A stretch of DNA of 64,000 nucleotides from an uncultured Prevotella sp. (GTDB taxonomy: Bacteria > Bacteroidota > Bacteroidia > Bacteroidales > Bacteroidaceae), in NCBI GenBank assembly GCA_902800365.1, contig CADCEF010000004.1:31768-95767 (forward strand). Direction: 5' to 3'. Shown piece by piece: positions 5,859-63,892 of the stretch. The notes under the pieces were generated by a model, which saw nothing but the letters and a program-made list of their open reading frames with translations, did no database searches and had not been told where the DNA came from. Positions within the stretch are counted from its first letter, which is position 1. The number at the start of each line of letters is the position of its first letter. A program made the position numbers and the translations under genes.

Positions 5859-8387
5859 TTAATCCTTGGTCTCTGGCTCAGCCTGTACGGCCTCGTCGGT
5901 AAGCTCGGCTTCCTCGATATCCTCGTCCTCGGCCTGTGAGTGCATTACCTTACATACTGAGGCAATAACATCGTTCTTCTTAGCCAGGTTGATGAGGCGA
6001 ACACCCTGAGTGGCACGGCCCATTACGCGGACATCGGCCACCTTAAGGCGGATGAGTACACCGCTCTTATTAATAATCATGAGGTCGTTCTCGTCGGTTA
6101 CTACCTTGATGGCTACCAGGCGACCGGTCTTCTCGGTGATGGCGAGTGTCTTAACACCCTTGGCACCACGGGCTGTCTTACGATAGTCCTCAACCTCTGA
6201 ACGCTTACCGTAGCCATTCTCACTTACTACCATGATGGTCTCGGTGTTAGGATCGTTTACGCAAACCATGCCTACTACCTCGTCGTCGCCACCGTCGAGA
6301 CGCATACCGATAACACCAGTAGAAACACGACCCATGGTGCGGACATCGTTCTCGTCGAAACGTACTGCACGACCGTTGCGGTTGGCCAGCAGCAGCTCGT
6401 TGTGACCGTTAGTAAGACGAACACCTACTACCTCGTCGCCCTCGTTGATGTTGATGGCGATAACACCGGCTGCACGTACATTCTTATAGGCATCGAGGCG
6501 TGTCTTCTTGATGATACCCTGCTTGGTAGCGAATACCACGTAGTGGCTCTTGAGGAACTCCTCGTCGCCGAAGTTCTTGATGCGCAGAACGGCATTGATA
6601 GAATCGTCGGGCTCGATGTTGAGCATATTCTGGATGGCGCGACCCTTAGAGTTCTTGTCGCCCTCAGGAATCTCGTAACACTTCTGCCAGTAGCAGCGGC
6701 CCTTCTGTGTGAAGAACAGCAGAGTGTTGTGCATTGTGGCAGGATAGATATACTCTGTGAAGTCGTTGTCGCGATGACGGGCTGCCTTAGAACCCATACC
6801 GCCACGGCTCTGCTCATGGAAGTCGCTGAGTGGTGTGCGCTTGATGTAACCCATGTGAGAGATGGTGATGACAACAGGATCATCGGGATAGAAGTCCTCG
6901 GCATTGAACTCGTGGTCGAATGGGATAATCTCTGTACGACGCTCGTCGCCATACTTCTCCTTAACCTCGAGCAGATCCTCCTTCATAACCTCCTTACAAC
7001 GCTCGGGGTTATCGAGAATCTCCTGCAACTCGGCAATGAGCTTCTGCAAGTCGTCGAACTCCTGGTGGAGCTGATCAACACGCAGACCTGTGAGCTGAGC
7101 CAGACGCATATCAACGATAGCCTTTGACTGAAGCTCGTCGAGCTCGAAACGCTGCTCCAGATTGCGCTGGGCATCGGTAGGAGTCTTAGAGTTGCGGATG
7201 ATGTGTACTACCTCATCGATATTGTTGACTGCGATGATCAAGCCCTCGAGGATGTGTGCACGCTCCTGAGCCTTGCGCAGATCGTACTTGGTGCGGCGGA
7301 TTGTTACGTCGTGACGGTGCTCAACGAAGTACTTAACACACTCCTTGAGCGAAAGCAGACGTGGACGGCCCTTGACCAGAGCAATATTGTTTACAGAGAA
7401 TGAACTCTGCAGTGCTGTCATCTTGAAGAGCTTGTTGAGCAGAACGTTTGCGTTAGCGTCGCGCTTGCAGTCGACTACGATACGCATACCCTGACGACCT
7501 GACTCATCGTTAACGTTAGCCACGCCCTCAATCTTGTGCTGGTTTGCCAGATCGGCAATATAAGCCACGAGGTCGGCCTTGTTAACGCCGTAAGGAATCT
7601 CGGTTACTACAATCTTATCGTGAGTTTCGCCGCTCTCAATCTCAGCCTTGGCACGCATAACGATACGGCCACGACCAGTCTCGTAAGCATCCTTAACACC
7701 CTGCAGACCATAGATATATGCTCCTGTTGGGAAATCAGGACCTGGGATGAACTGCATCAGGCCCTCGGTGTCGATATCAGGATTGTCGATATAAGCGCAG
7801 CAGCCATCGATAACCTCACCCAGGTTGTGGGTTGGCATATTGGTAGCCATACCTACAGCGATACCGTTACCACCGTTAACCAGCAGGTTAGGAATCTTGG
7901 TAGGCATTACTGTTGGCTCCTCGAGCGAATCGTCGAAGTTAGGAGCCATATCAACAGTTTCCTTATCAAGGTCGTCCATGATGTGCTCACCCATCTTAGA
8001 GAGGCGGCACTCGGTGTAACGCATGGCAGCTGGTGAGTCGCCATCAACTGAACCGAAGTTACCCTGACCGTCTACGAGGGTGTAACGCATGTTCCAGTCC
8101 TGAGCCATACGCACCAGGGCTCCATATACAGAACTGTCGCCGTGTGGGTGATACTTACCAAGCACCTCACCTACTACGCGCGCGCACTTCTTATAAGGTT
8201 GTGTAGAAACGTTGTTAATGTTCATCATACCGTAGAGGATACGGCGGTGAACAGGCTTGAAGCCGTCACGAACATCAGGAAGAGCACGTGCCACAATGAC
8301 TGACATTGAGTAGTCGATGTAGCTGGATTTCATTTCTTCCTCGATGTTGATCTTAATAATTCTGTCGTTGTCGAATGTTTGATCCAT
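5859..8387 (-). CDS. gyrA: DNA gyrase subunit A
   Basis: [31 protein letters not shown]-terminal pinwheel repeats. Confidence 0.98.
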
Positions 8388-8475
8388 CTTGATATTTTAC
8401 AATTTAACTATTTACTATTTTTCGATTTTTGCGTTTAAGGCCATTTTTAAGCCCGCTGACGCGTTTTTAACCGTG

Positions 8476-11132: not shown

Positions 11133-13064
11133 TTATAACGTATCACATTCTTTAAGCCAAAGGGCGGATGATGCGTCACTTGGCATACGCCAATCGCCTC
11201 GTGGCGAGAGACTTACACTTCCCACCTTAGGACCATCAGGCAAGCACGAACGCTTGAACTGCTGATTGAAGAATCGGCGGCAGAATGTGGTGAGCCATTT
11301 CTTGATGGTCTCCTCGTCGTAGAGTGCATCCTTACCATCGCTTGGTGTGCAGAAGGCACGCTTGGCAAGGAGGAATATCTTCTTAGGACTGAAGCCATAA
11401 CGCAGGAAATAGTAGATGAAGAAATCGTGCAGCTCGTATGGGCCCACAAGGTCTTCGGTCTTCTGCTTTATGTTGCCTTGTTCGTCGGCAGGAATAAGCT
11501 CTGGCGAAATAGGTGTGTCAACAATATCGAGCAGAGTCTCAGTTGCCATCTCGCCAGCCACATAGCTTACTAAGTAGCGGATGAGAGTCTTGGGCACTCC
11601 AGCGTTTACACCATACATCGACATGTGGTCGCCATTATATGTGGCCCATCCGAGGGCAAGCTCCGAGAGGTCGCCTGTACCCACAACGATGGCGTTCTCC
11701 TTGTTGGCTACATCCATCAGGATCTGTGTGCGCTCGCGAGCCTGAGAGTTCTCGTAGGTGATATCGTGGATGGCAGCATCGTGATTGATATCAGCGAAGT
11801 GCTGTGTTACAGCTGCTGCGATGCTAATCTCGCGGATGGTAACACCAAGTGTCTCCATCAGCTTCAGAGCGTTGTTATAGGTGCGATCGGTGGTTCCGAA
11901 TCCTGGCATTGTGATGCCCACGATGCCCTTGCGGTCGAGACCGAGCTTGTCGAACGCCTTAACGGCAACAAGCAGAGCGAGTGTAGAATCCAGTCCGCCG
12001 CTGATGCCGATAACAGCCTTCTTACCATTGATATGATACAGGCGCTTTACCAATCCCATAACCTGTATGTTGAGAATCTCCTCGCACGATGCCTGCATAT
12101 TCTCGCTCTTAGGAATGAAGGGATAAGGATCGATGTTGCGAGTGAGTTTGAACTCTCGCTGGGCTGTCTGCTTGCAGACTATCTCGTTGGCATGTGCGCC
12201 ACGCTGTGCATTGATGAATGTGGTGTTGGTGCGGCGCTCAACATGCAGTGCCTCGATGTCAATCTGGCACATCTTGAGTTGTGGCTGCAGAGAGAAGCGA
12301 TCGCCCTCTTCAAGCAGACGTCCGTTCTCGAAGATGATGGCATTTCCGCCATATACAACATCCTGAGTAGACTCTCCGAAACCGCAGCTTGAATATACAT
12401 ATCCGCTAATCATGCGGGCACTCTGCTGAGCAAGAAGCGACTTGAGGTAGGCATGCTTGCCGATAAGCTCATCGCTGGCAGAGAGATTGAAGATGATATC
12501 GGCTCCAGCAAGTGCAAGATTGTTACTTGGCGGTGTTGGTGCCCATACATCCTCGCAGATTTCAACGCCGAACTTAACGCCATCGCGGGTTACAAATACC
12601 TGTGGCTCGGCTGACACCTTAACAGGGCTGCCTGCGAAATAGATTTCGGTTGGGTTCAGGTCCTGCGACGAAGCAAACCAGCGCTTCTCGTAGAACTCGC
12701 CGTAGTTGGGTAAATATACCTTAGGCACAATGCCCAACAGTGTTCCGCTCTGCAGAACGGCAGCGCAGTTATACAGCAGGCCGTTTACCACAACGGGCAG
12801 ACCAACTATAACGATGGTGTTGAGCTTGCGGGTGAAATCGAGCAGCTGTACTACACCCTCCTCAGCATGGTCGAGAAGAAGCTGCTCCTTGAACAGATCC
12901 TGACAAGAATAGCCTGTGATGCAGAGCTCGGGGAACACGATAATCTCAACTCCACGATCCTCGGCCTGAGCTATCAGACTCTCTATCTGCTGAACATTAT
13001 ATTCTACATCGGCCACCTTAACCGTGGGAACAGCTGCTGCAACGTTTACAAATCCGTATTTCAT
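11133..13064 (-). CDS. nadE: Glutamine-dependent NAD+ synthetase
   Basis: N-terminal nitrilase domain (FPEL, EICED), [15 protein letters not shown]. Confidence 0.96.
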
Positions 13065-54366: not shown

Positions 54367-54439
54367 GCACCCGTAGCTCAGTTGGTAGAGCACCTGACTC
54401 TTAATCAGGGTGTCCAGAGTTCGAGCCTCTGCGGGTGTA
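54367..54439 (+). tRNA. trnK: tRNA-Lys(CTT)
   Basis: 73-nt cloverleaf: GCACCCG/CGGGTGT acceptor, anticodon arm CCTGA-CTCTTAA-TCAGG, T arm CAGAG-TTCGAGC-CTCTG; CCA not encoded. Confidence 0.97.
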
Positions 54440-54447
54440 CTGATATT

Positions 54448-54478
54448 AAGAAGAGATAAGTTATACTTATCTCTTCTT
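54448..54478. terminator. Palindrome H1
   Basis: AAGAAGAGATAAG-TTATA-CTTATCTCTTCTT after tRNA. Confidence 0.85.
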
Positions 54479-54574
54479 TTTGTTTTATATCACTAAAATA
54501 ATCATAAATCCTTGGAAGTCTCAAATTATTGTCTTATCTTTGCACCCAGATGTATTACAATTGAATTACAAAAT

Positions 54575-54829
54575 ATGGCAACAACGACGATTAGAAAGCC
54601 CGCTTCGTTCAGACTTAGGGCTGACCTCTTAGAGGGATTAAAGCGAAATGCTGCACGAGAGAACAGGACACTCAACAACTATGTTGAGAGTGTGCTGCTC
54701 GGTATTGTATTTGATGAACCTAACGAGGTGACTAAAGCCGCTATCAAGGAGGCTAAGTCAGGTAAGAACCCCAATAAGGTTTATGATGATATTGATGAAC
54801 TCTTTAAGGATTTAGATTCGGATAAATGA
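54575..54829 (+). CDS. Ribbon-helix-helix antitoxin-like protein with no toxin partner
   Basis: RKPASFRLRADLLEGLKRNAARENRTLNNYVE, PNEVTKAAIKEA; own promoter TATCTTTG at about 54535. Confidence 0.75.
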   Translation: MATTTIRKPASFRLRADLLEGLKRNAARENRTLNNYVESVLLGIVFDEPNEVTKAAIKEAKSGKNPNKVYDDIDELFKDLDSDK

Positions 54830-57216
54830 AGAAACTTTTATCAACTATCGTGCTGGCCATTGTTGCAACTGCCGGGTGGGCACAAACTCGAATATGGAAT
54901 AACATTGTTACCGGCTATTCCAATGTACCATTTGTAAAAGTAACCAAGGTAGTACTTAGTGCCGACAGCACTGAGGTATTTCTGCATTTCGACATGCCAG
55001 AACGTGCTGCAGGCCAGGAAGGTGTATTGGCTGCGAAATCGCAACTCCAGGCCGACGGTAAGACCTACGAAGCAAAGAACGCCGTAGGTATGAAACTGGG
55101 GCAGCCCGTCAAGATACCTAAGGACTGTAAGTTAGACTTCTCGCTGGTGTTCGATGCCCTGCCAGCATCTACATGGCAGTTTTCTATAAGTGATCCCGGC
55201 ATGTGGATAATTAATGCTGTACGCGATGCTGATGCGAATGCTGATGCTGATGTAACCCCCGTTGGCGTCACCGACACTTATTGGCGCAATACGCTTACTG
55301 GCGACTGGCTGGTAGGATTCGGCCAGCACCATGTAATATATGATAATAAGGTGTGGGATATCCTGAATCAGAAAGAACAGAAGGACGCCTACGAGCTTAC
55401 TCTGAACAATGGACTTACCATCAAGGTGGGCAAACTGAAGAAAGGTATTCGCCCGATAACTATCGGCGATGCTAAAGCTATCGCCTGCAGTGCGATCACT
55501 AATCTGTCGATAGCCGACTATCCTACGAAAGATACTCGCAAGGGATTTGTAGACAACGGTTATCGTGAGGGCGACAGCGTTACCATCATAGGCTGGCTGA
55601 AGGATATGCCAGAGCCGGCGTGGAGACTAAGTGACGAGTTTGAAGTAAGGACGAGCAATTTCATCAGTGATAAAACTGAAAGCTATAAAGCAAAGCTCGA
55701 CTCGCTGGGACGATTTACACTCCGAATGCCCATACTCAATTCTACAACAGCAATACTCGACCCGCGAAGATCTTGGGAATGGTCTGTATTAGAACCTGGA
55801 AAGACGTACTTCTTCCTGAACGACTTCACGACTGGCCAGAAGCTGTTTATGGGCGATGACGTACGTTTGCAAAACGAGCTTGTGGCTTGTGATGCAGCAT
55901 GGCCGGATGCGCGCATCAATAAAGGCGAGAGCGCCATGCAATTTAAGGCGCGCACGGATAGTGACTGTGAAGCCATAATGGCCAAGATGCAGGAGAATAT
56001 CGCACATCGCCCGAACATATCGCAGCGCTATATCGATTACATTAAAGGACTGTGTATGGCAGGGCAGGGCAACTCGATGATGCAGGCCCGATTCGATGTG
56101 CCTGGCAAAAATCTGCCCAAGGAGTATATGGATTATGTTACCACCAAGCTGTGGCAGCCCATGCCTAAACCTTATACGCTCTATATGAACTTCGCACCAT
56201 TTATGCGCGACTATCTTGACCACCTGAGAAATGAGCGCCACTCTGTGAGCATTGATCCTTACACAATAACGTTGAACGACGGTGCCTATCCCATCATTTT
56301 ACGCCAGGCTAGGGCTGATGGCAAGGTATCGATTACCGACGAGGAGCTTGCCCTAATGGAGCGTTATGCAGTGGAATATCACAAGGAGTATGCCAAACAA
56401 GCCAAGAACCAGAAGATAGATAGTCTAAACATTGATTTGGCTGGTACCGATTTAGATAAGCTTGGCATTGCGGAGCAGTATCTTGCCATTATGGAGCGTC
56501 CTGATGTGAAGAAGGCGATAGAGCAAGAATTCTCGTTGATAGATTTGTATTACCAAAAGCAGGCTATCGAATCGGCAACTACCGATAGGGCATTGATTGA
56601 TATGGCCTTGGCTCGCAAATTCTATTGGAAGCTTAACTCGTTCCGCAAGTCGCTTGACCCTTCTGATTTGAATTTCGCCAATAAAGAAATCAAGTTGGCA
56701 TCGGCACTAAACTTTGTTTTGACCGAAAACGATAAGTATGTAGCTTTGGAGCATCAGGACTTGGCTAATGCAGCCAGTCTGCGACCATCAACCGATGTTG
56801 CGAACATGACCGATGGCGAGAAGATGCTGCGCAAGATTATCGAGCCATATAAAGGCCGAGTAATCTATCTCGATGTATGGGGCACTTGGTGCGGCCCTTG
56901 CAAGCAGAAACTAAAGGACTCGTGGAAAGTAAAAGAGGCACTCAAGGATTACGATATCGTGTATCTCTACCTATGTAATGGCAGCAGCGATGAATCGTGG
57001 AAGAATGTGATTAAGGAGTACAATCTGACAGGACCAAACTGTGTTCACTATAATCTGCCAAAAGAACAGCAGAGTGCTATCGAGCATTACCTGAGTGTAA
57101 ACAGCTTCCCCACATATAAGATTATCGATAAGCAGGGAAACATTCACGACCTAGGTTGGCTCGACGATCAAAATCTGGAGGCATTCAAACAGACTATGGG
57201 AAAATTCTGCAAGTAA
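54826..57216 (+). CDS. Large secreted protein with C-terminal TlpA/thioredoxin-like domain
   Basis: Signal peptide ending WAQ; YLDVWGTWCGPC, SFPTYKIIDKQG. Confidence 0.85.
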   Translation: MKKLLSTIVLAIVATAGWAQTRIWNNIVTGYSNVPFVKVTKVVLSADSTEVFLHFDMPERAAGQEGVLAAKSQLQADGKTYEAKNAVGMKLGQPVKIPKDCKLDFSLVFDALPASTWQFSISDPGMWIINAVRDADANADADVTPVGVTDTYWRNTLTGDWLVGFGQHHVIYDNKVWDILNQKEQKDAYELTLNNGLTIKVGKLKKGIRPITIGDAKAIACSAITNLSIADYPTKDTRKGFVDNGYREGDSVTIIGWLKDMPEPAWRLSDEFEVRTSNFISDKTESYKAKLDSLGRFTLRMPILNSTTAILDPRRSWEWSVLEPGKTYFFLNDFTTGQKLFMGDDVRLQNELVACDAAWPDARINKGESAMQFKARTDSDCEAIMAKMQENIAHRPNISQRYIDYIKGLCMAGQGNSMMQARFDVPGKNLPKEYMDYVTTKLWQPMPKPYTLYMNFAPFMRDYLDHLRNERHSVSIDPYTITLNDGAYPIILRQARADGKVSITDEELALMERYAVEYHKEYAKQAKNQKIDSLNIDLAGTDLDKLGIAEQYLAIMERPDVKKAIEQEFSLIDLYYQKQAIESATTDRALIDMALARKFYWKLNSFRKSLDPSDLNFANKEIKLASALNFVLTENDKYVALEHQDLANAASLRPSTDVANMTDGEKMLRKIIEPYKGRVIYLDVWGTWCGPCKQKLKDSWKVKEALKDYDIVYLYLCNGSSDESWKNVIKEYNLTGPNCVHYNLPKEQQSAIEHYLSVNSFPTYKIIDKQGNIHDLGWLDDQNLEAFKQTMGKFCK

Positions 57217-57333
57217 TTTGATACCGCCCCTAGGCGCACGAATATGCGGTACTTGGGCAGGGGCGAACAGGCTGTTCTCTCCTGCTTTGGATTGAGCCGA
57301 ATGTGGCGGGGCTTTATGCGCTGCCTCTTTCGG

Positions 57334-58458
57334 CTATTTTGCTTTTAAGGTGATGAGCCAAGGATTTGGCTTGTCGGTGGAACCGAAAAGGGTGGCTTTG
57401 TCACCGATGGCGCTGAAACGGCGCAGCTGCAAGTAGTCAGGATGGCCGTCGGCATCGGTGTCGTTGAAGGTGATAAGCGTGCACCAGCCAAGCTTGAGGT
57501 AGCCAGCGTTGGCATAGGTGAACGGAAGTTGTTGGCGCTGTGCGCCTTGAACGCTGTCACCTTGTACGGTGATGCTGTCGCCAGGGGCGAGAAGGTACAT
57601 GCCTGAGTCGGACGAGTTGCCTCGTTCTTCGAGGGTGTGATTGTGTCCAAACAGTAGGACGATGTCGTGTTTTTGGGCGGCACGGCTAAGGGTATTGAAC
57701 CAGCGTAGCCCGCCGGGGTTGTCATTACGAGAAGCGTGAATAGGCACGTGTGACATCACGATGATTGGGGCGTGACCGCTTAGGGTGTCAGCCCATGCCG
57801 CGAAGCGGGCGGAGGCCGATTCGGCTGAAATGCCGTAAGGGTCGGCTATGTCGATACCATTGTAGGCGCGCAAGCCGCCAGATGGTTGCTGTGGCATTGG
57901 CATGGTACTATCATTATTAGCAGGTGGAGGATTGTTGCCTGGAATGTTATCACCTTGCTCATCGTAAAGAGCTACTGCAGCTCGTGTCAACGAGTCGGTG
58001 GCATAAGCCATTTGAGCGTAGCTGATACCATAGATATAATAGCCATCGCATCGATGGGGACCACTAAAGAAGGCTGAATAGTCATCGGTGCAGTTCCGGT
58101 CATGTGAGCCGTAAGTAAAGAATATCTCTGTCTTGTTAGGATCGAGTGATGAGAAAATCTCTGATCGGAGGTCGGCAAGTGTGAAGGCTGGTTGTCCTGT
58201 ATCTCCTGCATCAGGACCACTGCCTACGTAGTCGCCTCCGAGCAGCACAACACTTGGAGTAACAATACCATTGCGGTTGGCAACCTTTTGAATAGCTGCT
58301 GCCAGATTGTTGCCATTGCCCGCCTCATGACGGTCGGACGCGACAAATAGCGAGGTTGTTTTACCTTCCCAAACAGGTGGATTGTCTTCCGTAGCACAAG
58401 CAGTTATCATCACGATACTGCAGATTGCCTTAATAGCAAGTAGTAAATCTTTCTTCAT
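57334..58458 (-). CDS. Calcineurin-like metallophosphoesterase lipoprotein
   Basis: Lipobox ITAC; SDRH, GGDY, GSHD, SHVP, GHNH motifs. Confidence 0.85.
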   Translation of the reverse strand: MKKDLLLAIKAICSIVMITACATEDNPPVWEGKTTSLFVASDRHEAGNGNNLAAAIQKVANRNGIVTPSVVLLGGDYVGSGPDAGDTGQPAFTLADLRSEIFSSLDPNKTEIFFTYGSHDRNCTDDYSAFFSGPHRCDGYYIYGISYAQMAYATDSLTRAAVALYDEQGDNIPGNNPPPANNDSTMPMPQQPSGGLRAYNGIDIADPYGISAESASARFAAWADTLSGHAPIIVMSHVPIHASRNDNPGGLRWFNTLSRAAQKHDIVLLFGHNHTLEERGNSSDSGMYLLAPGDSITVQGDSVQGAQRQQLPFTYANAGYLKLGWCTLITFNDTDADGHPDYLQLRRFSAIGDKATLFGSTDKPNPWLITLKAK

Positions 58459-58561
58459 CTTTAGATTGTTTTATGGTGCAAAGATACAAAAAATATTGGA
58501 TGAACCTCACGGTTTGGCAAATATTTCGTTTTAGAAATTCAGATGTGACTGATTCTTTAAT

Positions 58562-58695
58562 CTGCTGCAAAGATAACATAATTAGAGAAAACAACAAAAA
58601 AAAATCCCTATTATTCATTGGGGATATCCCTATAATATAAAAAGAGATAAGCTTTGGGGCTTATCTCTTTTGCTTATATCATATTTATTGCTTTA
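58562..58695 (-). repeat. Junction module copy A (palindrome + promoter) with inserted hairpin H2
   Basis: 58562-58635 nearly identical to 60207-60282; TATTGCTTTA shared at 58686-58695 and 60287-60296. Confidence 0.9.
58640..58671. terminator. Palindrome H2
   Basis: AAAAGAGATAAG-CTTTGGGG-CTTATCTCTTTT. Confidence 0.85.
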
Positions 58696-59040
58696 TAATA
58701 CAGCAGCGTGCTTTAGTTCGTTTTGGATGGCTTTATTGATAAAATCGTTTATTGTGGTGCCAGTAGCTGCCACAACAGCTGCCACTCGAGAGTGAAGCTC
58801 TGACGACATGCGAAGATTCAATCTCCCACTATATGGCTTAGCAGGTTCAACCCCATCAGCTTTACAAGCTTCGAGATAGCTGTCAACACCATCCTCAAAA
58901 TCCTTACGTAATTCTTCGAGTGTATCGCCTTCATAGAGAATCAGCGCCTTACTCATTCCCTGAACCTTTCCAAACAGGCAGTTATCTTCCTTACTATACT
59001 CTACACTGCCTTTGTAGCCCTTATACTCCAAATAATCCAT
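58693..59040 (-). CDS. hicB: HicB family antitoxin
   Basis: LEYKGYKGSVEYS, YEGDTLEELRKDFEDGVDSYL, KPYSGRLNLRMSSELH. Confidence 0.93.
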   Translation of the reverse strand: MDYLEYKGYKGSVEYSKEDNCLFGKVQGMSKALILYEGDTLEELRKDFEDGVDSYLEACKADGVEPAKPYSGRLNLRMSSELHSRVAAVVAATGTTINDFINKAIQNELKHAAVL

Positions 59041-59048
59041 ATCATTAA

Positions 59049-59309
59049 TTATTTAATATGTCCATACTCTTTAAGATGCTGATAAATCGACTTGATCATC
59101 CACTCTTTCATAATACTACCAGGATGAGGGCGATGAATATCAATGTAAACACCTAATGTATCATTCTTAAATCTAACACGAGAGCCTGAAGTTGCCCCTT
59201 TATTATGAACATTATATCCGAAGTGTGCTAAAAGTGCAATAGTTTCTTCGTACGTAAAGTCCTTGGGTTTCTTCTTGAAACGTTCAACCAATTTTTCTTT
59301 TGTACCCAT
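59049..59309 (-). CDS. hicA: HicA family toxin
   Basis: MGTKEKL, GATSGSRVRF, IHRPHP. Confidence 0.92.
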   Translation of the reverse strand: MGTKEKLVERFKKKPKDFTYEETIALLAHFGYNVHNKGATSGSRVRFKNDTLGVYIDIHRPHPGSIMKEWMIKSIYQHLKEYGHIK

Positions 59310-59329
59310 AATTATGTATTTGGCTGCAA

Positions 59330-59347
59330 AAGTACTAAATTTAGTAC
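59330..59347. promoter_or_regulatory. Putative HicB operator
   Basis: Perfect palindrome AGTACTAAATTTAGTACT overlapping the hicA -7 box (TACTTTTG on -). Confidence 0.7.
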
Positions 59348-59490
59348 TAACTTCCAAACTTTTTTCCGATTATTTTAGTTTTCCACCTTATATCCTTTTT
59401 AAAAGTATCATTTCATAAAAAAAGTGGGTTCGATATTTGGTAGTAACAGGAAGTAACATATACAGGGTCTAAGTGCCTGATATTCAAGAA

Positions 59491-59514
59491 GGGTTCGACA
59501 CTCTGCGGGTGTAC
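59491..59514 (+). repeat. Duplicated tRNA-Lys 3' end (attR-like)
   Basis: GGGTTCGACACTCTGCGGGTGTAC; preceded by AGTAACA direct repeats at 59442 and 59452. Confidence 0.85.
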
Positions 59515-59521
59515 GAAAAGC

Positions 59522-59553
59522 AAAAGAGATAAGTCGAAAAACTTATCTCTTTT
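59522..59553. terminator. Palindrome H3
   Basis: AAAAGAGATAAG-TCGAAAAA-CTTATCTCTTTT. Confidence 0.85.
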
Positions 59554-59560
59554 TTGTTTT

Positions 59561-60178
59561 TTATTCAAGTTTTCGTCCTCGATAGTAATCATTAAATGCA
59601 TCTTTGGCATAGCCATCGCCAGTATATTTAAATGTGCCGGCAGAGGCTCCGTCTACTTTCTTTCCAAAATAGAACACGGTGAATGCATCCTTGGCGTAAC
59701 CACCTTCTAATAACTTAAAGGAACCTGCTGAAGCTTCAATCTTTCTACCATGATAGAATACGCTGAAAGAATCCTTTGCATAACCTTCGCCTATTTCCTT
59801 GAATGTAGCTGCAGTTGCGTCTATCTTTTTACCATCATAGTAAACATTAAAGTCTGATTTGTAATAACCTTCATGTCGTCTGTCGTAATCGCGGTGTTCC
59901 ATTGGTTCACGATAATGCGACTTAGAATGACTCTTAAGACGGAAAGTAGCAGGATCGACATACTCCAGCACTCGACCGTCGAGATATACATTTTCGCAGT
60001 CCTTTGCATAACCGCAACCTAAATCTACGAACGTACGAGCATCGGCATAAGGGATTGGCTTGCGCTCAAAAAGCACTATGCCACGGTCGACTTCATACGA
60101 TTGTGCATATACCGATACAGTACATCCTAATAATCCTATCACCATAAGTGACTTCAGTAAAAATGCTTTCTGTTTCAT
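59561..60178 (-). CDS. DKNYY-family repeat protein, exported
   Basis: Repeated YAKDxxxVYYxGKKI units; signal peptide. Confidence 0.82.
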   Translation of the reverse strand: MKQKAFLLKSLMVIGLLGCTVSVYAQSYEVDRGIVLFERKPIPYADARTFVDLGCGYAKDCENVYLDGRVLEYVDPATFRLKSHSKSHYREPMEHRDYDRRHEGYYKSDFNVYYDGKKIDATAATFKEIGEGYAKDSFSVFYHGRKIEASAGSFKLLEGGYAKDAFTVFYFGKKVDGASAGTFKYTGDGYAKDAFNDYYRGRKLE

Positions 60179-60206
60179 ACTCTTGATAATTTAGAATTTT
60201 AAATAA

Positions 60207-60296
60207 CTGCTGCAAAGATAACATAATTAGAGAAAACAACAAAAAAGAAAATCCCTATTATTCATTGGGGATTTTCCTATAACATCTATTGCTTTA
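60207..60296 (-). repeat. Junction module copy B
   Basis: Palindrome AAAATCCCTA-TTATTCAT-TGGGGATTTT abutting -33 TTTG / -7 TATCTTTG promoter of DKNYY gene. Confidence 0.9.
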
Positions 60297-60382
60297 CTGA
60301 ATAAATCAGCCTGTTAGCTGATAATTTTTCTTTAGAAGGAATAGAAATTTTATTTTTGCATCGGATTAAACAAATAAATAAG

Positions 60383-60952
60383 ATGCGAAAGAAACAATTA
60401 TTGGTAATATGTATGTTCCTGATTTCAGGAAGCCTGATGGCTCAGGAGCCAATGCATAAACGAAAACAAGTGACCTATGAGCAGGTTACTAAAATGATGG
60501 TCAAGGATCTTCAGCTGGATGAAAAGCAGCAGAAGAAGGTGACTAAACTCAATAAGAAGTACAAAACCCTTATTGAGGGTGAGCAACGCGAGGCTCCAGG
60601 CAAAGGACGCCCTAATATGGGTGAACGACCTTCAGGACCTCCTAGTGGCGGTATGCCGGGTGGACCTGGTGGTTTTGGTGGTGGTCCTGGAGGCGGCTTC
60701 GGTGGAGGCATGCCTGGAGGTATGGGAGGAGGCCCAAGGACGGGTGGAATGCCCGGAGGACCAGCTTCAGAAAACAGCTATGACTACGACAAGAAACAGA
60801 AGAAGTACGACAAGGCAATAAGCAAAATCCTGTCTGAAAAGCAGATGGAGGGTTATCAGGAGATTAAGACCCAGTTTGCCTCACAGAGACGCGTAAGAAA
60901 CTTCTTGTTTGGTTCACCACAAGACTTCAACAAAGATGGAAAAGATAAGTGA
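60383..60952 (+). CDS. Exported protein with Gly/Pro/Met-rich low-complexity linker
   Basis: Signal peptide ending MAQ; GGPGGFGG repeats between helical Lys-rich segments. Confidence 0.7.
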   Translation: MRKKQLLVICMFLISGSLMAQEPMHKRKQVTYEQVTKMMVKDLQLDEKQQKKVTKLNKKYKTLIEGEQREAPGKGRPNMGERPSGPPSGGMPGGPGGFGGGPGGGFGGGMPGGMGGGPRTGGMPGGPASENSYDYDKKQKKYDKAISKILSEKQMEGYQEIKTQFASQRRVRNFLFGSPQDFNKDGKDK

Positions 60953-61053
60953 GTTGGTAATGGCTGTAATATCAGCGATAGTCCAAAGTGCAGTATTCCT
61001 TGTGATTCTTTTTATGCTGTTCATATCCTTTGTCAGCATATTAATACCAGCAA

Positions 61054-61085
61054 AAAAGAGATAAGCATTTGCGCTTATCTCTTTT
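61054..61085. terminator. Palindrome H4
   Basis: AAAAGAGATAAG-CATTTGCG-CTTATCTCTTTT, directly after HEPN stop. Confidence 0.85.
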
Positions 61086-61088
61086 ACT

Positions 61089-61493
61089 TTATTGTTTATT
61101 CTCCTCTTCAAATAACTGATCTTTGAAGAATGCTATCGCTTGTTTTAATGGTTCCAACTCTTTTTTTACTACTTCGTAGACAACATCAGCGTCGACTTCA
61201 AAGTAGTGATGAGCCATAATATCGCGTATACCCATAACCCTTTTCCAAGGAATGCTTGGATATGTAGGTAATAGTTTTCCTTCGGAAACTTTGTCGAGAT
61301 TCTTAATAGACTCTCCGATTGCTATCAGTACCATACATGCAGCATCAAGTTTCTCCATTCCCACAGGACTGGTTAAGAAATCATCAACTGAAAGAATGTT
61401 TTTGGTTCTTTCCTGGAGTCTGTTTATGGCCAATTCCAGCTGACTAAGAGTATGCCATATTAGAGGCAGATTCTCTGATGATATCGATTCCAT
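61089..61493 (-). CDS. HEPN (DUF86/HepT-like) toxin
   Basis: IPWKRVMGIRDIMAHHYFEVD (RX4H); start codon uncertain. Confidence 0.88.
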   Translation of the reverse strand: MESISSENLPLIWHTLSQLELAINRLQERTKNILSVDDFLTSPVGMEKLDAACMVLIAIGESIKNLDKVSEGKLLPTYPSIPWKRVMGIRDIMAHHYFEVDADVVYEVVKKELEPLKQAIAFFKDQLFEEENKQ

Positions 61494-61767
61494 CTTTCTC
61501 AATTTGTTTAAGTAAGAAAGCATCATTATTACGATGTTTCCTGATTAAGTCAACATGACATCCAAGCAGACTTTCGAGATACTCTTGCAGACCAATTATC
61601 TTATAGATACTAGGTTCCATCTCAACAAACACATCAACATCGCTCGACTCATGCTGCTGATTACGAGCTAACGAGCCAAACAAGCGAAGCGAACGGACGT
61701 CGAATTCTTCAATAATCGTCTTTGCATTCGCCAAAATCTTATCGATGCATTCTTGTCTACTTAACAT
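61444..61767 (-). CDS. Minimal nucleotidyltransferase (MntA-like) antitoxin
   Basis: LFGSLARNQQHESSDVDVFV, LGCHVDLI. Confidence 0.9.
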   Translation of the reverse strand: MLSRQECIDKILANAKTIIEEFDVRSLRLFGSLARNQQHESSDVDVFVEMEPSIYKIIGLQEYLESLLGCHVDLIRKHRNNDAFLLKQIEKDGIDIIRESASNMAYS

Positions 61768-61895
61768 ATCTGCTGCAAATATAACTCAATTATCTGAATA
61801 ATGCAAGTTTTTATGGAATTTTCCATTATTTGTGCTAATATTTGAGACTTTTATGAGATTTTTTTAGTACCTTTGCACCCCCAAAAAAGAAAAAA

Positions 61896-62234
61896 ATGAC
61901 ATTACACGATCTTATAAACTCTGTAGACACCGAGCAGTATAGCGATAATCAGCTATACCAGAAGCTCCGTAATACTAAGCCAGAATATGGCTATCTCCGA
62001 CGTATTAATGTAAAAGAAGAAAAAGGCAAGCTCATAATCACCAACACTCATATAGGCTCACTAGGCGACATTCTTACATACGTAGTTGATGTAGCTCCGG
62101 AACTGAACATATCTAAGGTTCAGCTCTTGGACGCCATCCTGCAGGAGATGTCAAAAGGCGGTTTCTCAGAGCAAGAAGAGTGCGTCTTCTGGAATGATTT
62201 CGACAATCTTCAGAAAGCCAAGATTATCAGATAA
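61896..62234 (+). CDS. Hypothetical protein
   Basis: 112 aa ORF downstream of TACCTTTG box. Confidence 0.65.
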   Translation: MTLHDLINSVDTEQYSDNQLYQKLRNTKPEYGYLRRINVKEEKGKLIITNTHIGSLGDILTYVVDVAPELNISKVQLLDAILQEMSKGGFSEQEECVFWNDFDNLQKAKIIR

Positions 62235-62260
62235 ATCATAATTCACCACGAAATAAAACA

Positions 62261-62381
62261 GTTATAGGAAAATCCCCAATGAATAATAGGGATTTTCTTT
62301 TGGGGCGATAAACTGAAAAGTGTTATCTTTGCAGCGGTTATTTAAAAATCGTAATTATCAATCATTAAAATTAAAAGTATG
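62261..62381 (+). repeat. Junction module copy C (inverted relative to A and B)
   Basis: 62261-62301 is the exact reverse complement of 60243-60283; promoter and leader also resemble copy B. Confidence 0.9.
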
Positions 62382-62936
62382 AAAAAGCTATTATTTATTA
62401 TGGTGGCCCTATGCATGGCTACAACAATCGATGCACAGGTTTATGTGGGTGGTGGAATCGGTTTCACCCGAACAACTGAAGCTTTAAACAAGTCGACTAT
62501 CTTTAGACTTATGCCCGAGGCAGGATATCGTATTAACGATCGCTGGGCCATAGGTTTGTCTCTAGGTTATGCCAATTCTAAGAATTCTACAGAAGTAAGT
62601 GGTATGGAATCGGAACTGAAACTAACGCAATATAACTTTAATCCATATGCACGTTATACCTTTGCAAAAATAGATAAAGTTGGTTTGTTTGTTGATGGAG
62701 GTGTTGAGTATATACACCGCGACATCAAAGGGTCATATGATACAAATGCCTGGAATATTGGTCTGCGCCCAGGTATCAGTTTCGCTGTGAACGACAAAAT
62801 AAGTCTTGTGGCCCAAGTAGGATTCCTTGGTTACCGCACTCAGAAATCAGATTTTGAAGGCGCAATAGCCACAAACACTTTCACAGCCGATATAGATGGT
62901 AATGATCTCTCCTTCAGTGTTTATTACAACTTCTGA
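62379..62936 (+). CDS. Outer-membrane beta-barrel protein
   Basis: Signal peptide ending DAQ, alternating aromatic strands, C-terminal YYNF. Confidence 0.85.
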   Translation: MKKLLFIMVALCMATTIDAQVYVGGGIGFTRTTEALNKSTIFRLMPEAGYRINDRWAIGLSLGYANSKNSTEVSGMESELKLTQYNFNPYARYTFAKIDKVGLFVDGGVEYIHRDIKGSYDTNAWNIGLRPGISFAVNDKISLVAQVGFLGYRTQKSDFEGAIATNTFTADIDGNDLSFSVYYNF

Positions 62937-62942
62937 AAAAGA

Positions 62943-62974
62943 AAAAGAGATAAGCGCAAAAGCTTATCTCTTTT
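62943..62974. terminator. Palindrome H5
   Basis: AAAAGAGATAAG-CGCAAAAG-CTTATCTCTTTT between convergent genes. Confidence 0.85.
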
Positions 62975-62980
62975 TTGTCT

Positions 62981-63892
62981 CTATAGATTCTCGGCCTCAA
63001 GGAAACGTAACTCAGCCTCCAGCATCTCCAGCTTACGCATAGGGAATCCAGCCTCGCGGGCTATCTCAAGCGGACGTGTGTAGAGATAATATATCTCCAT
63101 CGGACGATGGAAGTCGTAGTCCAGTCGCATCGATGGCGAGTAAGGCGTCATCTCGTCCGTCATCGTTATCATCTTCTCAACAAACGCCTCGTCAAGGTTC
63201 TTCACGCCCAGATGCAGAGCAGCGCCTACCACCTCCATCATCTGCTCGCGTATCAGCTTTCGTGTAGAAGGGTTCTTCAGCAGTTTGTCGGTCTGCGTGT
63301 GCAGTGCCACCGTCATACCGTTAAACGGCATGTTCCATACCGCCTTTTTCCATCGCGCCTCGTTATACTCCACCAGCCCAGTCTCAATGCCAGCAGCGCG
63401 GAATTCATCCACCACCGCCTGCATCTTCGCCTCGTCGCGGCATGAGTAGTTGGCCAGGTTTATGCTGCCGTAGCACTGATGACTCACCACACCCGGCTCA
63501 GTCTTTGCCGAACAGATAAAAGCCAGTCCTGCAGCCAGCTGCACCCCAGGAAACATCTTCTGCACATCGTCCTCCACACCTATGCCGTTCTGTATCAGCA
63601 CCACCAGCGTGTCGGCGCCTACCAATGGAGTCAGCAGCTCCTTCAGCATGCCGTTGTTAACCGATTTCAGGCCCACCAGCACCACGTCGCACTTTGGCAT
63701 GTCGCTCGAGTGCTGATACACGTTCACGTTGTCCAGATGGAACGATCCGTCGCACGAGTCAACCTGCAGTCCGTTCTGCTTCACATATTCATAGTCGCGA
63801 TGCAGCAAGAAGTGCACCTCCTGCCCTCCATGAGCCAGTTTTGCACCGTAATATCCTCCTATGGCACCAGTGCCGATTACTCCGTATTTCAT
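62981..63892 (-). CDS. panE: Ketopantoate reductase family protein
   Basis: GTGAIGGYYG, LIQNGIG, WKKAVWN, SMRLD; start could be 63898 or 63904. Confidence 0.85.
   Translation of the reverse strand: MKYGVIGTGAIGGYYGAKLAHGGQEVHFLLHRDYEYVKQNGLQVDSCDGSFHLDNVNVYQHSSDMPKCDVVLVGLKSVNNGMLKELLTPLVGADTLVVLIQNGIGVEDDVQKMFPGVQLAAGLAFICSAKTEPGVVSHQCYGSINLANYSCRDEAKMQAVVDEFRAAGIETGLVEYNEARWKKAVWNMPFNGMTVALHTQTDKLLKNPSTRKLIREQMMEVVGAALHLGVKNLDEAFVEKMITMTDEMTPYSPSMRLDYDFHRPMEIYYLYTRPLEIAREAGFPMRKLEMLEAELRFLEAENL

Follow-up and report, generated by a model that had tools for sequence, protein, structure and literature searches.

A strain-variable array of probable small mobile-element remnants next to a lysine tRNA gene in rumen Prevotella

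Short single-gene and toxin-antitoxin (TA) units in mixed orientations, separated by two families of repeats, extend from a lysine tRNA gene across positions 54367-62980 of the 64-kb stretch of DNA analysed here (the window). The question raised by this locus is how such an array is assembled and reordered when it encodes no recombinase of its own. An earlier note, made from the sequence, had proposed an integron-like cassette array in which the two repeat families, H and J, served as shared exchange sites. The host belongs to the Xylanibacter ruminicola group of rumen Prevotella. The analysis indicates that small remnants of mobile elements, with TA and surface-protein genes, have piled up downstream of the tRNA gene in combinations that vary between strains, bounded by copies of the last 14 nt of the tRNA. 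This way of build-up has already been described for genomic islands, and a new integron-like system is rejected.

The tRNA-Lys(CTT) gene at 54367..54440 (+; ARAGORN; Rfam tRNA, 68 bits) would be the integration target and supply the attB/attL left half. The duplication of its 3' end was confirmed by repeat search: 54416-54440 and 59490-59514 match at 22/25 positions, and the final 14 nt are identical. This 14-nt core, CTCTGCGGGTGTAC, lies at 54427..54440 (+) in attL and at 59501..59514 (+) in attR, the second copy within a whole tRNA 3' remnant (59490-59514, +), and an H hairpin directly follows each of the two tRNA 3'-end copies. The left part of the locus (54441-59514, 5.1 kb), with direct core copies on both sides, is a putative composite integrase-less integrative islet, and the right part (59515-62980, 3.4 kb) is probably an older flexible segment. 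Against a backbone GC content of 48%, the left part has 45% and the right part 39%. In 13 contigs CTCTGCGGGTGTAC was found at every unit boundary. Its left partner is the tRNA body in some cases and a conserved P arm in the others, and its right partner is one of four unit-specific arm types (Z, X, C, I), each beginning with an H hairpin. All eight of the eight possible left-by-right junction types were present in these contigs, the combination of P arm and I arm being defined by H and ~35 nt of common flank only, and this fits reciprocal exchange within about 14-24 nt. From this comparison the point of reciprocal exchange is the 14-nt tRNA-Lys 3' end, and not H or J as the earlier note had supposed, and the duplicated tRNA end is a true att repeat.

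The left part begins with an 84-aa RHH-like orphan antitoxin (54575..54829, +; no Pfam match), followed by cargo: a 796-aa secreted protein with a thioredoxin-like C-terminus (54826..57216, +; PF13905, E = 2.9e-11), which has 79-86% alleles in L255, L260, and L156, and a 374-aa metallophosphoesterase (mpe374; 57334..58458, -; PF00149), which was found in window-type contigs only and is absent from L081, L255, and L260. In L255 a 90-aa YafQ toxin (E = 9e-32) comes after the RHH homologue, which is 98.8% identical; this toxin partner is present in L255 and L260 and deleted in the window. Pfam also identified a pair (58693..59309, -; PF05534 and PF07927) of HicB antitoxin (58693-59040) and HicA toxin (59049-59309), both of which are 98-100% identical across strains with 86-91% backbone identity.

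The right part contains a DKNYY-family secreted protein gene (59561..60178, -; PF13644; RNA depth 115-167), which is down to two fragments in L001, L230, L219, and L255, and a 185-aa OMP beta-barrel protein (62379..62936, +; PF13505, E = 3e-19; RNA depth 110-280). Between them are a 189-aa Gly-rich secreted protein (gly189; 60383..60952, +; weak DUF4890 match), an indel TA module (61089..61767, -; PF01934, PF18765, PF01909) of HepT toxin (61089-61526) and MNT antitoxin (61444-61767), and a 112-aa protein predicted as an ORF (61896..62234, +) with no Pfam match and no PADLOC match. L081-type strains have lost gly189 (deletion of 60381-61011) but retain the orphan promoter, and HepT/MNT is missing from L249-L251 and has an internal HepT deletion in L244. 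The TAnnTTTG promoters reported earlier were verified, with a box 16-55 nt upstream of every transcription unit. Three TA-type modules had been claimed; two (HicAB and MNT-HepT) are complete pairs, while the third is the orphan RHH antitoxin.

Comparison with related rumen Prevotella strains showed at least 10 locus architectures among about 25 contigs: empty, one to three tandem units, permuted, inverted, and deleted. Gene content and order thus differ from strain to strain, and in this respect the cassette-like hypervariability predicted by the earlier note was borne out. L230 represents the empty site, with the tRNA, H, DKNYY fragments, and panE in order. The window, L081, and L001 each have one unit in the same place with different cargo, and L255 and L219 have two or more tandem units, each closed by P arm and core. 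Units are 96-100% identical between strains in which the FAD gene is only 86-91% identical, which indicates horizontal movement. The islet in the window is not a clean unit; it is a fusion of RHH/thioredoxin, mpe374, and J1-H2-HicBA with a single att pair. In L260 and L253 the DKNYY-J2 block is placed between the tRNA and the HicBA unit, so an extra rearrangement is needed, and the L253-type haplotype is reshuffled without any H. The earlier note had expected gene content to change at the repeats. This held for 14/29 mapped breakpoints, which lie within 10 nt of repeats that make up 8.4% of the region (P = 2e-8), but half fall within genes or unique sequence, which in part matches an outcome that the note itself had counted against its proposal.

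The comparison loci are all metagenome contigs or MAGs, and Logan unitigs are broken at J and at the tRNA, so the permutations might be chimeric contigs assembled across short repeats. This is barely credible, for each haplotype recurs in several independent samples: one architecture in L081, L084, L085, L086, and L256, a second in L253, L254, L257, L258, L259, and L261, and a third in L082, L083, and L246, from independent samples and assemblers. The repeats, at 30-100 nt, are below read or read-pair length, and the unit-specific arm variants agree across contigs.

The P arm of the window (59426..59500, +) was delimited by alignment of units and has lost about 140-160 nt internally, at 59452/59453. 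Its full form, roughly 245 nt and common to other units and a prophage, holds a TTTG-N20-TAACTTTG promoter, and its left edge is constant to within 8 nt beside four unrelated cargos. The prophage (L113/L262) ends in the same P arm and core and encodes HTH_17, a VapE-like protein, ArdA, and a ClpP-like protease; its 31.6-kb contig stops before attL, and an integrase specific for this att and this P arm was not found. As the earlier note had stated, no recombinase was present among the array genes by Pfam, and a profile of tRNA-Lys-adjacent integrases detected none across all 64 kb, the best match having E = 0.32. By sequence comparison the tRNA-Lys is 100% identical in L001, L230, L255, and the integrase-bearing contigs L120-L124. 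Tyrosine integrases of 382-385 aa are located directly 3' of this identical gene in L120, L121, L122, and L124, and these elements have their own hairpin straight after the core. Co-occurring tyrosine recombinases, for which the earlier note had proposed a search, are therefore found in related contigs and not in the window. Because such integrases adjoin an identical tRNA-Lys, the units are likely to be moved by a tyrosine integrase acting in trans, and this enzyme is presumably specific for tRNA-Lys, in keeping with the earlier suggestion of a recombinase encoded elsewhere.

These observations also bear on whether site-specific recombination was involved at all. A plasticity zone shaped purely by homologous recombination, in which RecA patches in other strains' DNA and H, J, and the P arm are merely portable homology, would account for the mosaic identity (100% blocks beside 97-98% blocks) and for the lack of an integrase nearby. 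The inversion and deletions are compatible with it, and repeats of 46-245 nt that are 90-100% identical are enough for RecA. However, the tRNA body and the P arm have just about 24 nt in common around the core, and the X-type right arm resembles the others in little more than the H stem, yet the tRNA-X and P-X junctions nonetheless change partners precisely at the core. The duplicated tRNA 3' end together with the empty-site allele is a classical integrase footprint, and neither the integrases beside the identical tRNA in related elements nor the closing of a prophage by the same P arm and core favours homologous recombination alone, which we consider unlikely.

The five H palindromes described earlier were all recovered; they have a common 12-14-bp stem, AAAAGAGATAAG / CTTATCTCTTTT, and loops or spacers of 5-8 nt that vary (TTATA, CTTTGGGG, TCGAAAAA, CATTTGCG, CGCAAAAG). 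The full pattern had 0 matches in shuffled sequences, and all 10 occurrences of the word GAGATAAG in the window are within these five hairpins. As claimed, neither H nor J was found in the remaining 55 kb of the window, and both are confined to the locus when the 64 kb and about 1.4 Mb of related loci are considered together. H behaves like a terminator: its copies are at gene 3' ends, have fold energies of -17 to -20 kcal/mol, are flanked by A and U tracts, and are where RNA unitigs end. H1 (54448..54478; loop TTATA; -19.9 kcal/mol) is the putative core-proximal (P') arm of the RHH/thioredoxin unit, and its TTATA variant also lies between the P-arm core and the RHH/thioredoxin genes in L255, L260, and L156. 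H3 (59522..59553; -18.1 kcal/mol) appears to be the native tRNA-Lys terminator (B' arm), which also serves the DKNYY gene; at the empty site of L230 this same H variant and the DKNYY 3' end directly follow the tRNA, and H3 was probably displaced from the tRNA by the insertion. As judged from these alignments, H would be the tRNA-Lys terminator copied as an arm beside the core, with each unit carrying its own variant.

The other three hairpins have no adjacent core, so accretion alone is insufficient for them. H2 (58640..58671; repeat search and folding) is the hicBA terminator; the HicB RNA unitig begins within it at 58650, and it is the left limit of a block 100% identical in L081. H4 (61054..61085; folding and RNA unitigs) lies between gly189 and hepT and serves both as a bidirectional terminator; RNA unitigs begin in it at 61057 and 61071, and there are indel breakpoints at 61085 and 61090. 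H5 (62942..62975; -20.1 kcal/mol) plays the same bidirectional part between the OMP gene and panE, and RNA unitigs end at 62957-62986.

The three J modules of the earlier note were likewise found by repeat comparison and share a 25-nt exact core that is absent elsewhere in the window. J1 (58553..58638, +) is a partial terminator-plus-promoter module that abuts H2; this junction type recurs in L260 as J2-H, and a 12-nt relic of J1 persists in L081. J2 (60183..60285, +) comprises a hairpin, a TAtcTTTG promoter, and the 5'UTR of the DKNYY gene, and J3 (62261..62361, -) comprises a hairpin and the promoter and 5'UTR of the OMP gene. They form the left and right arms of an inversion of a 2-kb segment, present in at least 5 independent assemblies, with the crossover inside the 41-nt perfect inverted repeat that they have in common (60243-60283). 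J is a terminator-plus-promoter module common to surface-protein genes, and its sole clear role in recombination is this one inversion, plus an H-J composite junction.

Several observations speak for H and J as dedicated sites of a new integron-like cassette system with its recombinase elsewhere: the lox-like layout of H (inverted arms of 13 bp on either side of an asymmetric 8-bp spacer), the confinement of both families to the locus, the excess of breakpoints near repeats, the permutation of H-delimited segments among the window, L255, and L260, and the inversion crossover in a palindromic J core. One deletion even fuses H4 to J3 exactly, with TATA between, and recreates the H-TATA-J composite of J1-H2 in the window and J2-H in L260. 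Partner switches, however, are always at the tRNA core and never within H, and the H variant (e.g. loop TTATA) is constant per unit whether the tRNA or the P arm is on its left. H spacers vary between copies and can flip between strains, which is unfavourable for recombinases that depend on spacer homology. The L253-type haplotype was reshuffled despite having zero H, the breakpoints in unique sequence are unexplained by such sites, and 5/5 H copies are exactly at places needing terminators. The inverted segment diverges by 2.8% whereas its flanks are 99.9-100% identical, which argues against fast site-specific switching. Dedicated H and J sites are therefore highly unlikely.

The locus is probably best explained by tandem accretion of integrase-less, att-flanked islets like cis-mobilizable elements (CIMEs) through a tyrosine integrase acting in trans, overlaid by homologous recombination and ordinary deletions. 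Elements targeting the 14-nt core would insert beside the tRNA and displace older ones outward. Every incoming element would supply its own H immediately 3' of the core, so that the tRNA retains a terminator, and the far end of each would consist of the conserved P arm and core. Loss of integrase and backbone genes would then leave small att-flanked units with TA, Abi, or surface-protein cargo, which the tRNA-Lys-specific integrase of a co-resident prophage or mobilizable element may still excise, integrate, or reorder in trans. In the right segment, two highly expressed surface-protein genes have homologous regulatory flanks, with J upstream and H downstream, and these repeats, most likely via homologous recombination, gave rise to the inversion between J2 and J3, to the junctions that fuse H with J, and to part of the deletions. 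The remaining indels (gly189, MNT-HepT, and the toxin genes) are probably ordinary illegitimate deletions or insertions.

Among known systems, integron cassette arrays and CALINs also consist of compact single-gene or TA units that need no recombinase inside the cassettes. No defining integron feature is present here, in that intI, attI, and attC are all absent, H forms a perfect palindrome of 12-14 bp that lacks R/L boxes and extrahelical bases, and the units have their own promoters, mixed orientations, and exchange at a tRNA-derived core; the integron-like nature suggested earlier is thus replaced by decayed att-flanked elements. Bacteroidales invertons and shufflons resemble the J2/J3 segment, as segments flanked by inverted repeats are found in both orientations in natural populations with no adjacent invertase, but with inverted repeats of 10-30 nt, against about 100 nt (41 nt perfect) here, where the flipped 2-kb segment holds whole genes with their own promoters. 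Because the two orientations are 2.8% divergent, the inversion does not necessarily amount to phase variation. Upstream homology boxes are known from paralogous surface-protein loci, e.g. the Borrelia erp/mlp families. The DKNYY gene, the OMP gene, and an OMP paralogue in L253 are unrelated genes for secreted proteins that similarly share J (promoter, 5'UTR, and first codons), though in just 2-3 copies at a single locus and coupled to the shared terminator H.

Arrays of islands bounded by partial tRNA copies include the tycheposon-type islands of Prochlorococcus (10.1101/2020.12.28.424599), and the ssrA-specific islands of Dehalococcoides (PMC3146451) are comparable. There too, a single tRNA or tmRNA gene receives one element after another, so that older elements are displaced inward, and partial target-gene copies between units, integrase-less degenerate remnants, and strain-variable cargo are found. 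Their cargo is nutrient-uptake or dehalogenase genes rather than TA, Abi, and surface proteins, and an integrase-bearing member was not recovered at the Prevotella locus. CIMEs have lost integration and transfer genes, keep attL and attR, and use a recombinase in trans, and new elements enter the att site at a tRNA gene 3' end to give tandem arrays, as in ICESt1/ICESt3 relatives and the tRNA-Lys(CTT) composite islands of Streptococcus agalactiae (PMC5704250). The Prevotella units share the att flanks, the missing integration and transfer genes, the tandem arrangement at a tRNA-Lys 3' end, and the presumed recombinase in trans. They differ in their host, a member of the Bacteroidota rather than the Firmicutes, in having a prophage instead of an ICE as the partner that carries the same P arm, and in their very small size (about 1.2-5 kb). 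Mobilization of these units is presumed, and the shared terminator (H) and promoter (J) repeats form an extra layer.

The array at tRNA-Lys (window positions 54367-62980) contained every element that had been listed in the earlier note, as judged by sequence scans and Pfam: the tRNA-Lys gene, five hairpins with the same stem (H1 to H5), three terminator-plus-promoter modules (J1 to J3), a repeated tRNA 3' end, toxin-antitoxin (TA)-type genes, and no recombinase. Pfam identified HicB/HicA, HepT/MNT, a DKNYY protein, an OMP beta-barrel protein, a metallophosphoesterase, and a large thioredoxin-like protein. The units were in mixed orientations with promoters of their own, as had been claimed: a TAnnTTTG box was found 16-55 nt upstream of each transcription unit. 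This box is the usual Bacteroidetes -7 promoter element, so it signals many small operons and nothing special.

Related loci were collected in two ways. With the neighboring FAD-oxidoreductase gene as bait, 80 loci from rumen Prevotella and Xylanibacter species were found; tRNA-Lys adjoined the gene in only the two closest of these, and none of the 80 contained the cassette genes of the window. Look-ups of exact proteins together with a scan for H produced about 25 contigs of the same locus from independent rumen metagenomes, and among these there were at least 10 architectures, which bore out the claim that the array is variable. Two contigs (L082 and L083) were 100% identical to the window. 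In the L081 type, a single CarboxypepD_reg-like gene replaced RHH, trx796, mpe374 and J1, the J2-J3 segment was inverted, and gly189 was deleted; in L001, an AbiE-like/metallophosphoesterase trio replaced the entire left part. L255 and L219 had at least two units in tandem, L260 and the L253 type began with DKNYY and continued with HicB(A) and further units, L247 was a separate architecture, L249-L251 were without MNT-HepT, and HepT was internally deleted in L244 (L244 424-568, with window 61172-61457 missing). The site was empty in L230. Each main architecture occurred in several samples, which argues against assembly chimeras.

TA toxins were repeatedly lost while the antitoxins were kept. 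YafQ was absent in the window (RHH84/trx796 junction, 54826-54829, versus a copy at L255 6731-7003) and fragmentary in L260, and HicA was reduced to 32 nt in L253-type strains (L253 flipped, 8357-8388). The MNT antitoxin (61444-61767) matched the PADLOC candidate defence family PDC-S09 (E = 1e-21), and the metallophosphoesterase of the L001 islet (L001 3333-4085) matched PDC-S10 (E = 2e-9). The 117-nt spacer between the convergent genes trx796 and mpe374 (57217-57333) was GC-rich and had no H-type or other obvious terminator, unlike all other gene ends in the array. Joints 57217->59481 and 57217->59495 in read runs X32 and X2 represented a variant in which trx796 was followed directly by the P arm (a conserved stretch at the far end of units) and the tRNA core. 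The promoter region of mpe374 (58492) was joined to that of unk112 (61859) through the 28-nt filler TATTCATTATTAACTATTTACTATTCAC in contigs from runs X1, at low depth, and X2; this joint is a further architecture, not recovered as a long contig. Past panE, beyond the right end of the window, were genes for APH, NUDIX and an SLFN-like helicase (L082 11869-20558, L081 11714-20558). After these, L082 had RteC, an M15 peptidase and a Toprim/DnaB_C primase-helicase, and L081 had HU-HIG and AhpC. This divergent region is probably another mobile or defence region.

The five H hairpins, starting at 54448, 58640, 59522, 61054 and 62942, had the common stem AAAAGAGATAAG/CTTATCTCTTTT, a perfect stem of 12-14 bp, with differing loops of 5-8 nt. 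The 8-mer GAGATAAG occurred 10 times in the 64 kb, every time within an H hairpin, and the full pattern had no matches in shuffled sequences. The hairpins folded at -17 to -20 kcal/mol (z -5.7 to -8.6) with A and U tracts on their flanks, all five were at gene 3' ends, and metatranscriptome unitigs of hicB, DKNYY, hepT-mnt and OMP started or stopped inside H2-H5 (these are contig ends, not mapped 3' ends). H has the features of an intrinsic bidirectional terminator. A REP- or MITE-like dispersed palindrome was dismissed, as no copies were found in the remaining 55 kb of the window, in the 9 kb past panE, or outside this locus in related loci totalling about 1.4 Mb; within these sequences H was confined to the locus, in line with the earlier note, which had noticed neither repeat family in the preceding 54 kb. 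Generic scans for the H pattern matched 24 contigs of viral origin and no fewer than 120 from metagenomes; nearly all matches were unrelated single AT-rich hairpins, and only contigs of the same locus were informative. H, J and the P arm had no Rfam matches at E ≤ 1 in the window or in contigs L113 and L219.

The place at which partners are exchanged was located by comparing all junctions around the tRNA end. An intact tRNA-Lys(CTT) gene (54367-54440) formed one islet boundary, and its 3' end was duplicated at 59490-59514 with 22 of 25 positions matching and the final 14 nt, CTCTGCGGGTGTAC, identical (54427-54440 and 59501-59514). To the left of this core was either the tRNA body or the conserved P arm ending in ...AAGGGTTCGACA. 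To the right was one of four arms, each opening with its own variant of H: Z is the host flank before DKNYY; X, whose H loop is TTATA, precedes RHH/trx; C precedes the Carbo/HicBA unit; and I precedes the AbiE-like unit. Every one of the eight pairings of left and right was seen, that of P with I through H plus about 35 nt only. The two left types have only about 24 nt in common, and site-specific recombination is therefore the best explanation for exchange at this one point, with the 14-nt tRNA core as the exchange site. In the unoccupied site of L230, the tRNA ran straight on into H, the DKNYY fragments and panE; together with this empty site in a relative, the intact tRNA and the direct repeat of its 3' end in the window are the features of a tRNA-targeting element. 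No further core was found in segment 59515-62980, in which GC was 39% versus 48% in the backbone.

These junctions did not uphold the proposal that H and J are shared exchange sites: partners switch at the tRNA core, whereas H serves as a terminator arm and J as a promoter module. A lox-like crossover at H was rejected on the same table of junctions, which puts the exchange elsewhere. In the empty site the tRNA directly precedes H in its H3 variant, which makes H the terminator native to tRNA-Lys in this lineage. The fixed place of the core with H to its right indicates that H1 and H3 are core-proximal arms; H4 and H5, as well as H2 within the left islet, are orphans placed exactly where convergent or tandem genes end. 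The tRNA-Lys genes of other Prevotella, like the integrase-bearing elements inserted in them, had different hairpins at the same place, which suggests that inserting elements would bring a terminator for the tRNA they interrupt. H is accordingly described here as a duplicated terminator arm, and it serves as a caution that palindromes repeated within a single locus may be duplicates of a terminator next to att and not recombination sites. Between the core and DKNYY, the loop of the perfect H palindrome read CTTTTCGG in one strain, whereas another strain had the reverse complement, CCGAAAAG (L247 flipped, 2263-2290, versus L255 flipped, 12255-12282), and this flip at the same position led to rejection of loop orientation as a marker of site polarity. 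In a further haplotype (L253 9140-9216, also L254, L257, L259 and L261), tRNA-Lys was cut after nucleotide 68 and H was precisely deleted (...CTCTGCGG joined to CTTTTTTTGTTTT); no H copy was left anywhere in the L253-type array.

The full P arm was about 245 nt long (L255 7349-7625, minus strand; L113 110-345; L219 1074-1311 and 3089-3324), and its left edge was constant within 8 nt beside four unrelated cargos. The window copy had an internal deletion at 59452/59453. The same arm terminates a prophage (L113/L262) encoding HTH_17, a VapE-like protein, ArdA and a ClpP-like protease, and the attR of this prophage in L113 adjoins another H-type arm. In contigs L123 (8722-8796), L264 and L284 (IMGVR_UViG_2593339271_000001), a related prophage was directly upstream of a complete tRNA-Lys(CTT), so that the full tRNA gene stands where the P arm and core otherwise sit; the ClpP-like protease of this type was 75% identical to that of L113, and the host genes CrcB and LysR were downstream of the tRNA.

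The P arm carries a canonical promoter, TTTG-N20-TAACTTTG, directed toward the core and H. In metatranscriptomes X31 and X32, RNA k-mer depth over 59454-59519 was 126-1216 versus 3-4 just upstream, and abundant P-arm unitigs ran on into a stretch of about 140-160 nt that is missing from the window. This suggests that the P arm yields a plentiful transcript, about 130-190 nt long, whose 3' end resembles that of tRNA-Lys. A tRNA or tmRNA was rejected: neither Rfam nor ARAGORN matched this RNA, there was no strong fold (z about -1), and variation was too low for covariation.

No recombinase was found within the window, in keeping with the earlier note, which placed it elsewhere. Pfam analysis of all 12 array ORFs revealed no recombinase, an integrase profile run against all ORFs of the window had a best E of 0.32, and tblastn found no integrase homologue in the fetched loci of the lineage. 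Tyrosine integrases of 382-385 aa were encoded directly 3' of an identical tRNA-Lys in four IMG/VR contigs. None was found on the 31.6-kb prophage contig, which stops within an ORF short of attL. Since the window and lineage loci lack a homologue and the prophage contig ends where it does, we can only infer an integrase acting in trans.

An exact 25-mer was common to the three J modules (58553-58638, 60183-60285 and 62261-62361) and absent from the rest of the window. J consists of an 11-bp hairpin with a U tract, a TAtcTTTG promoter, a 5'UTR, and the first codons of DKNYY and OMP. A diverged copy adjoined an OMP paralogue in L253. J2 and J3 face in opposite directions, and the crossover of the J2-J3 inversion falls within the 41 nt that they share as a perfect core; both orientations occur among strains, the inverted segment was 2.8% different, and no invertase was found nearby. 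A composite of H, TATA and J recurred as J1-H2 in the window, as J2-H in L260, and at an H4-J3 deletion joint. That gene content changes at these repeats was correct for about half of the events: 14 of 29 breakpoints, which are not fully independent, were within 10 nt of repeats making up 8.4% of the region (P = 2e-8), but the other half were in unique sequence. The latter included the gly189 deletion, the internal HepT deletion, and three deletions leaving DKNYY and OMP as fragments in L001-type strains. In addition, a joint in DNA run X2 and in run X25 marked an in-frame-looking internal loss of 507 nt from the Gly-rich middle of gly189 (60408-60916). The events at H and J probably arose between short regulatory repeats, by homologous recombination or by template switching.

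The islets were far better conserved than the surrounding chromosome, which points to movement of the units. Compared with L255, identity was 91% for the FAD gene and 95% for panE, versus 98-100% for the P arm, the RHH gene, and hicBA with the region upstream of it; compared with L253, it was 86% for the FAD gene, 96% for DKNYY and 99% for hicB. L081 had a 1658-nt block 100% identical to the window, with 98.25% identity in the tRNA-side flank and 97.2% in the inverted segment. A tentative reading, which we consider rather unlikely, is that the units are true minimal cassettes and not wreckage, each consisting of cargo and a complete attP (the promoter-bearing P arm of about 245 nt with its abundant RNA, the 14-nt core, and the H terminator), which the integrase of a helper prophage would move in trans into and out of tRNA-Lys, while the H-J flanks would provide a second, homology-based layer of shuffling. 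If this were true, rumen Prevotella would have an integron-like, promoter-carrying system, anchored at a tRNA, for capturing genes of the TA, defence and surface classes. The locus offers a nucleotide-resolution view of how strain-level gene-content diversity arises in Prevotella, a dominant rumen genus, with one tRNA-Lys site holding from zero to at least three small TA, Abi or surface-protein islets in many orders. Its att core, P arm and empty-site allele are also defined parts with which one could examine whether elements without an integrase are mobilized in trans in Bacteroidota.

Compared with known systems, the array as a whole failed every defining integron feature tested, and the description of it as integron-like was abandoned. 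Integrons and CALINs are defined by IntI, attI and Pc, whereas the window has no recombinase. The attC sites of integrons, 57-141 nt long, are imperfect palindromes that contain extrahelical bases and R''/L''-L'/R' boxes, in contrast to the perfect stem and short loop of H, and integron cassettes are mostly promoterless and in one orientation, unlike the units here. Invertons and shufflons are driven by an invertase and have both orientations in one clonal population; for J2-J3, the two orientations were observed in different strains. Islands that target tRNA genes carry a tyrosine integrase inside the element beside att, which the window array does not. The left part, as read from its sequence, has what defines a CIME, with attL and attR kept and the integration and transfer genes lost, and the tandem accretion of CIMEs was seen in L255 and L219, where each unit closes in P arm and core. 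CIMEs are derived from an ICE or IME and leave or transfer along with an element that arrives; the sole partner seen here is a prophage, and mobilization of the units is a prediction. No published description of this Prevotella locus, or of CIME-type accretion in Bacteroidota, was found in the literature searched. What remains of the earlier interpretation is a variable, trans-dependent array anchored at tRNA-Lys, but with its exchange site at the tRNA core and of a kind already known: it fits the accretion model (PMC5704250) and islands delimited by partial tRNAs (10.1101/2020.12.28.424599; PMC3146451).
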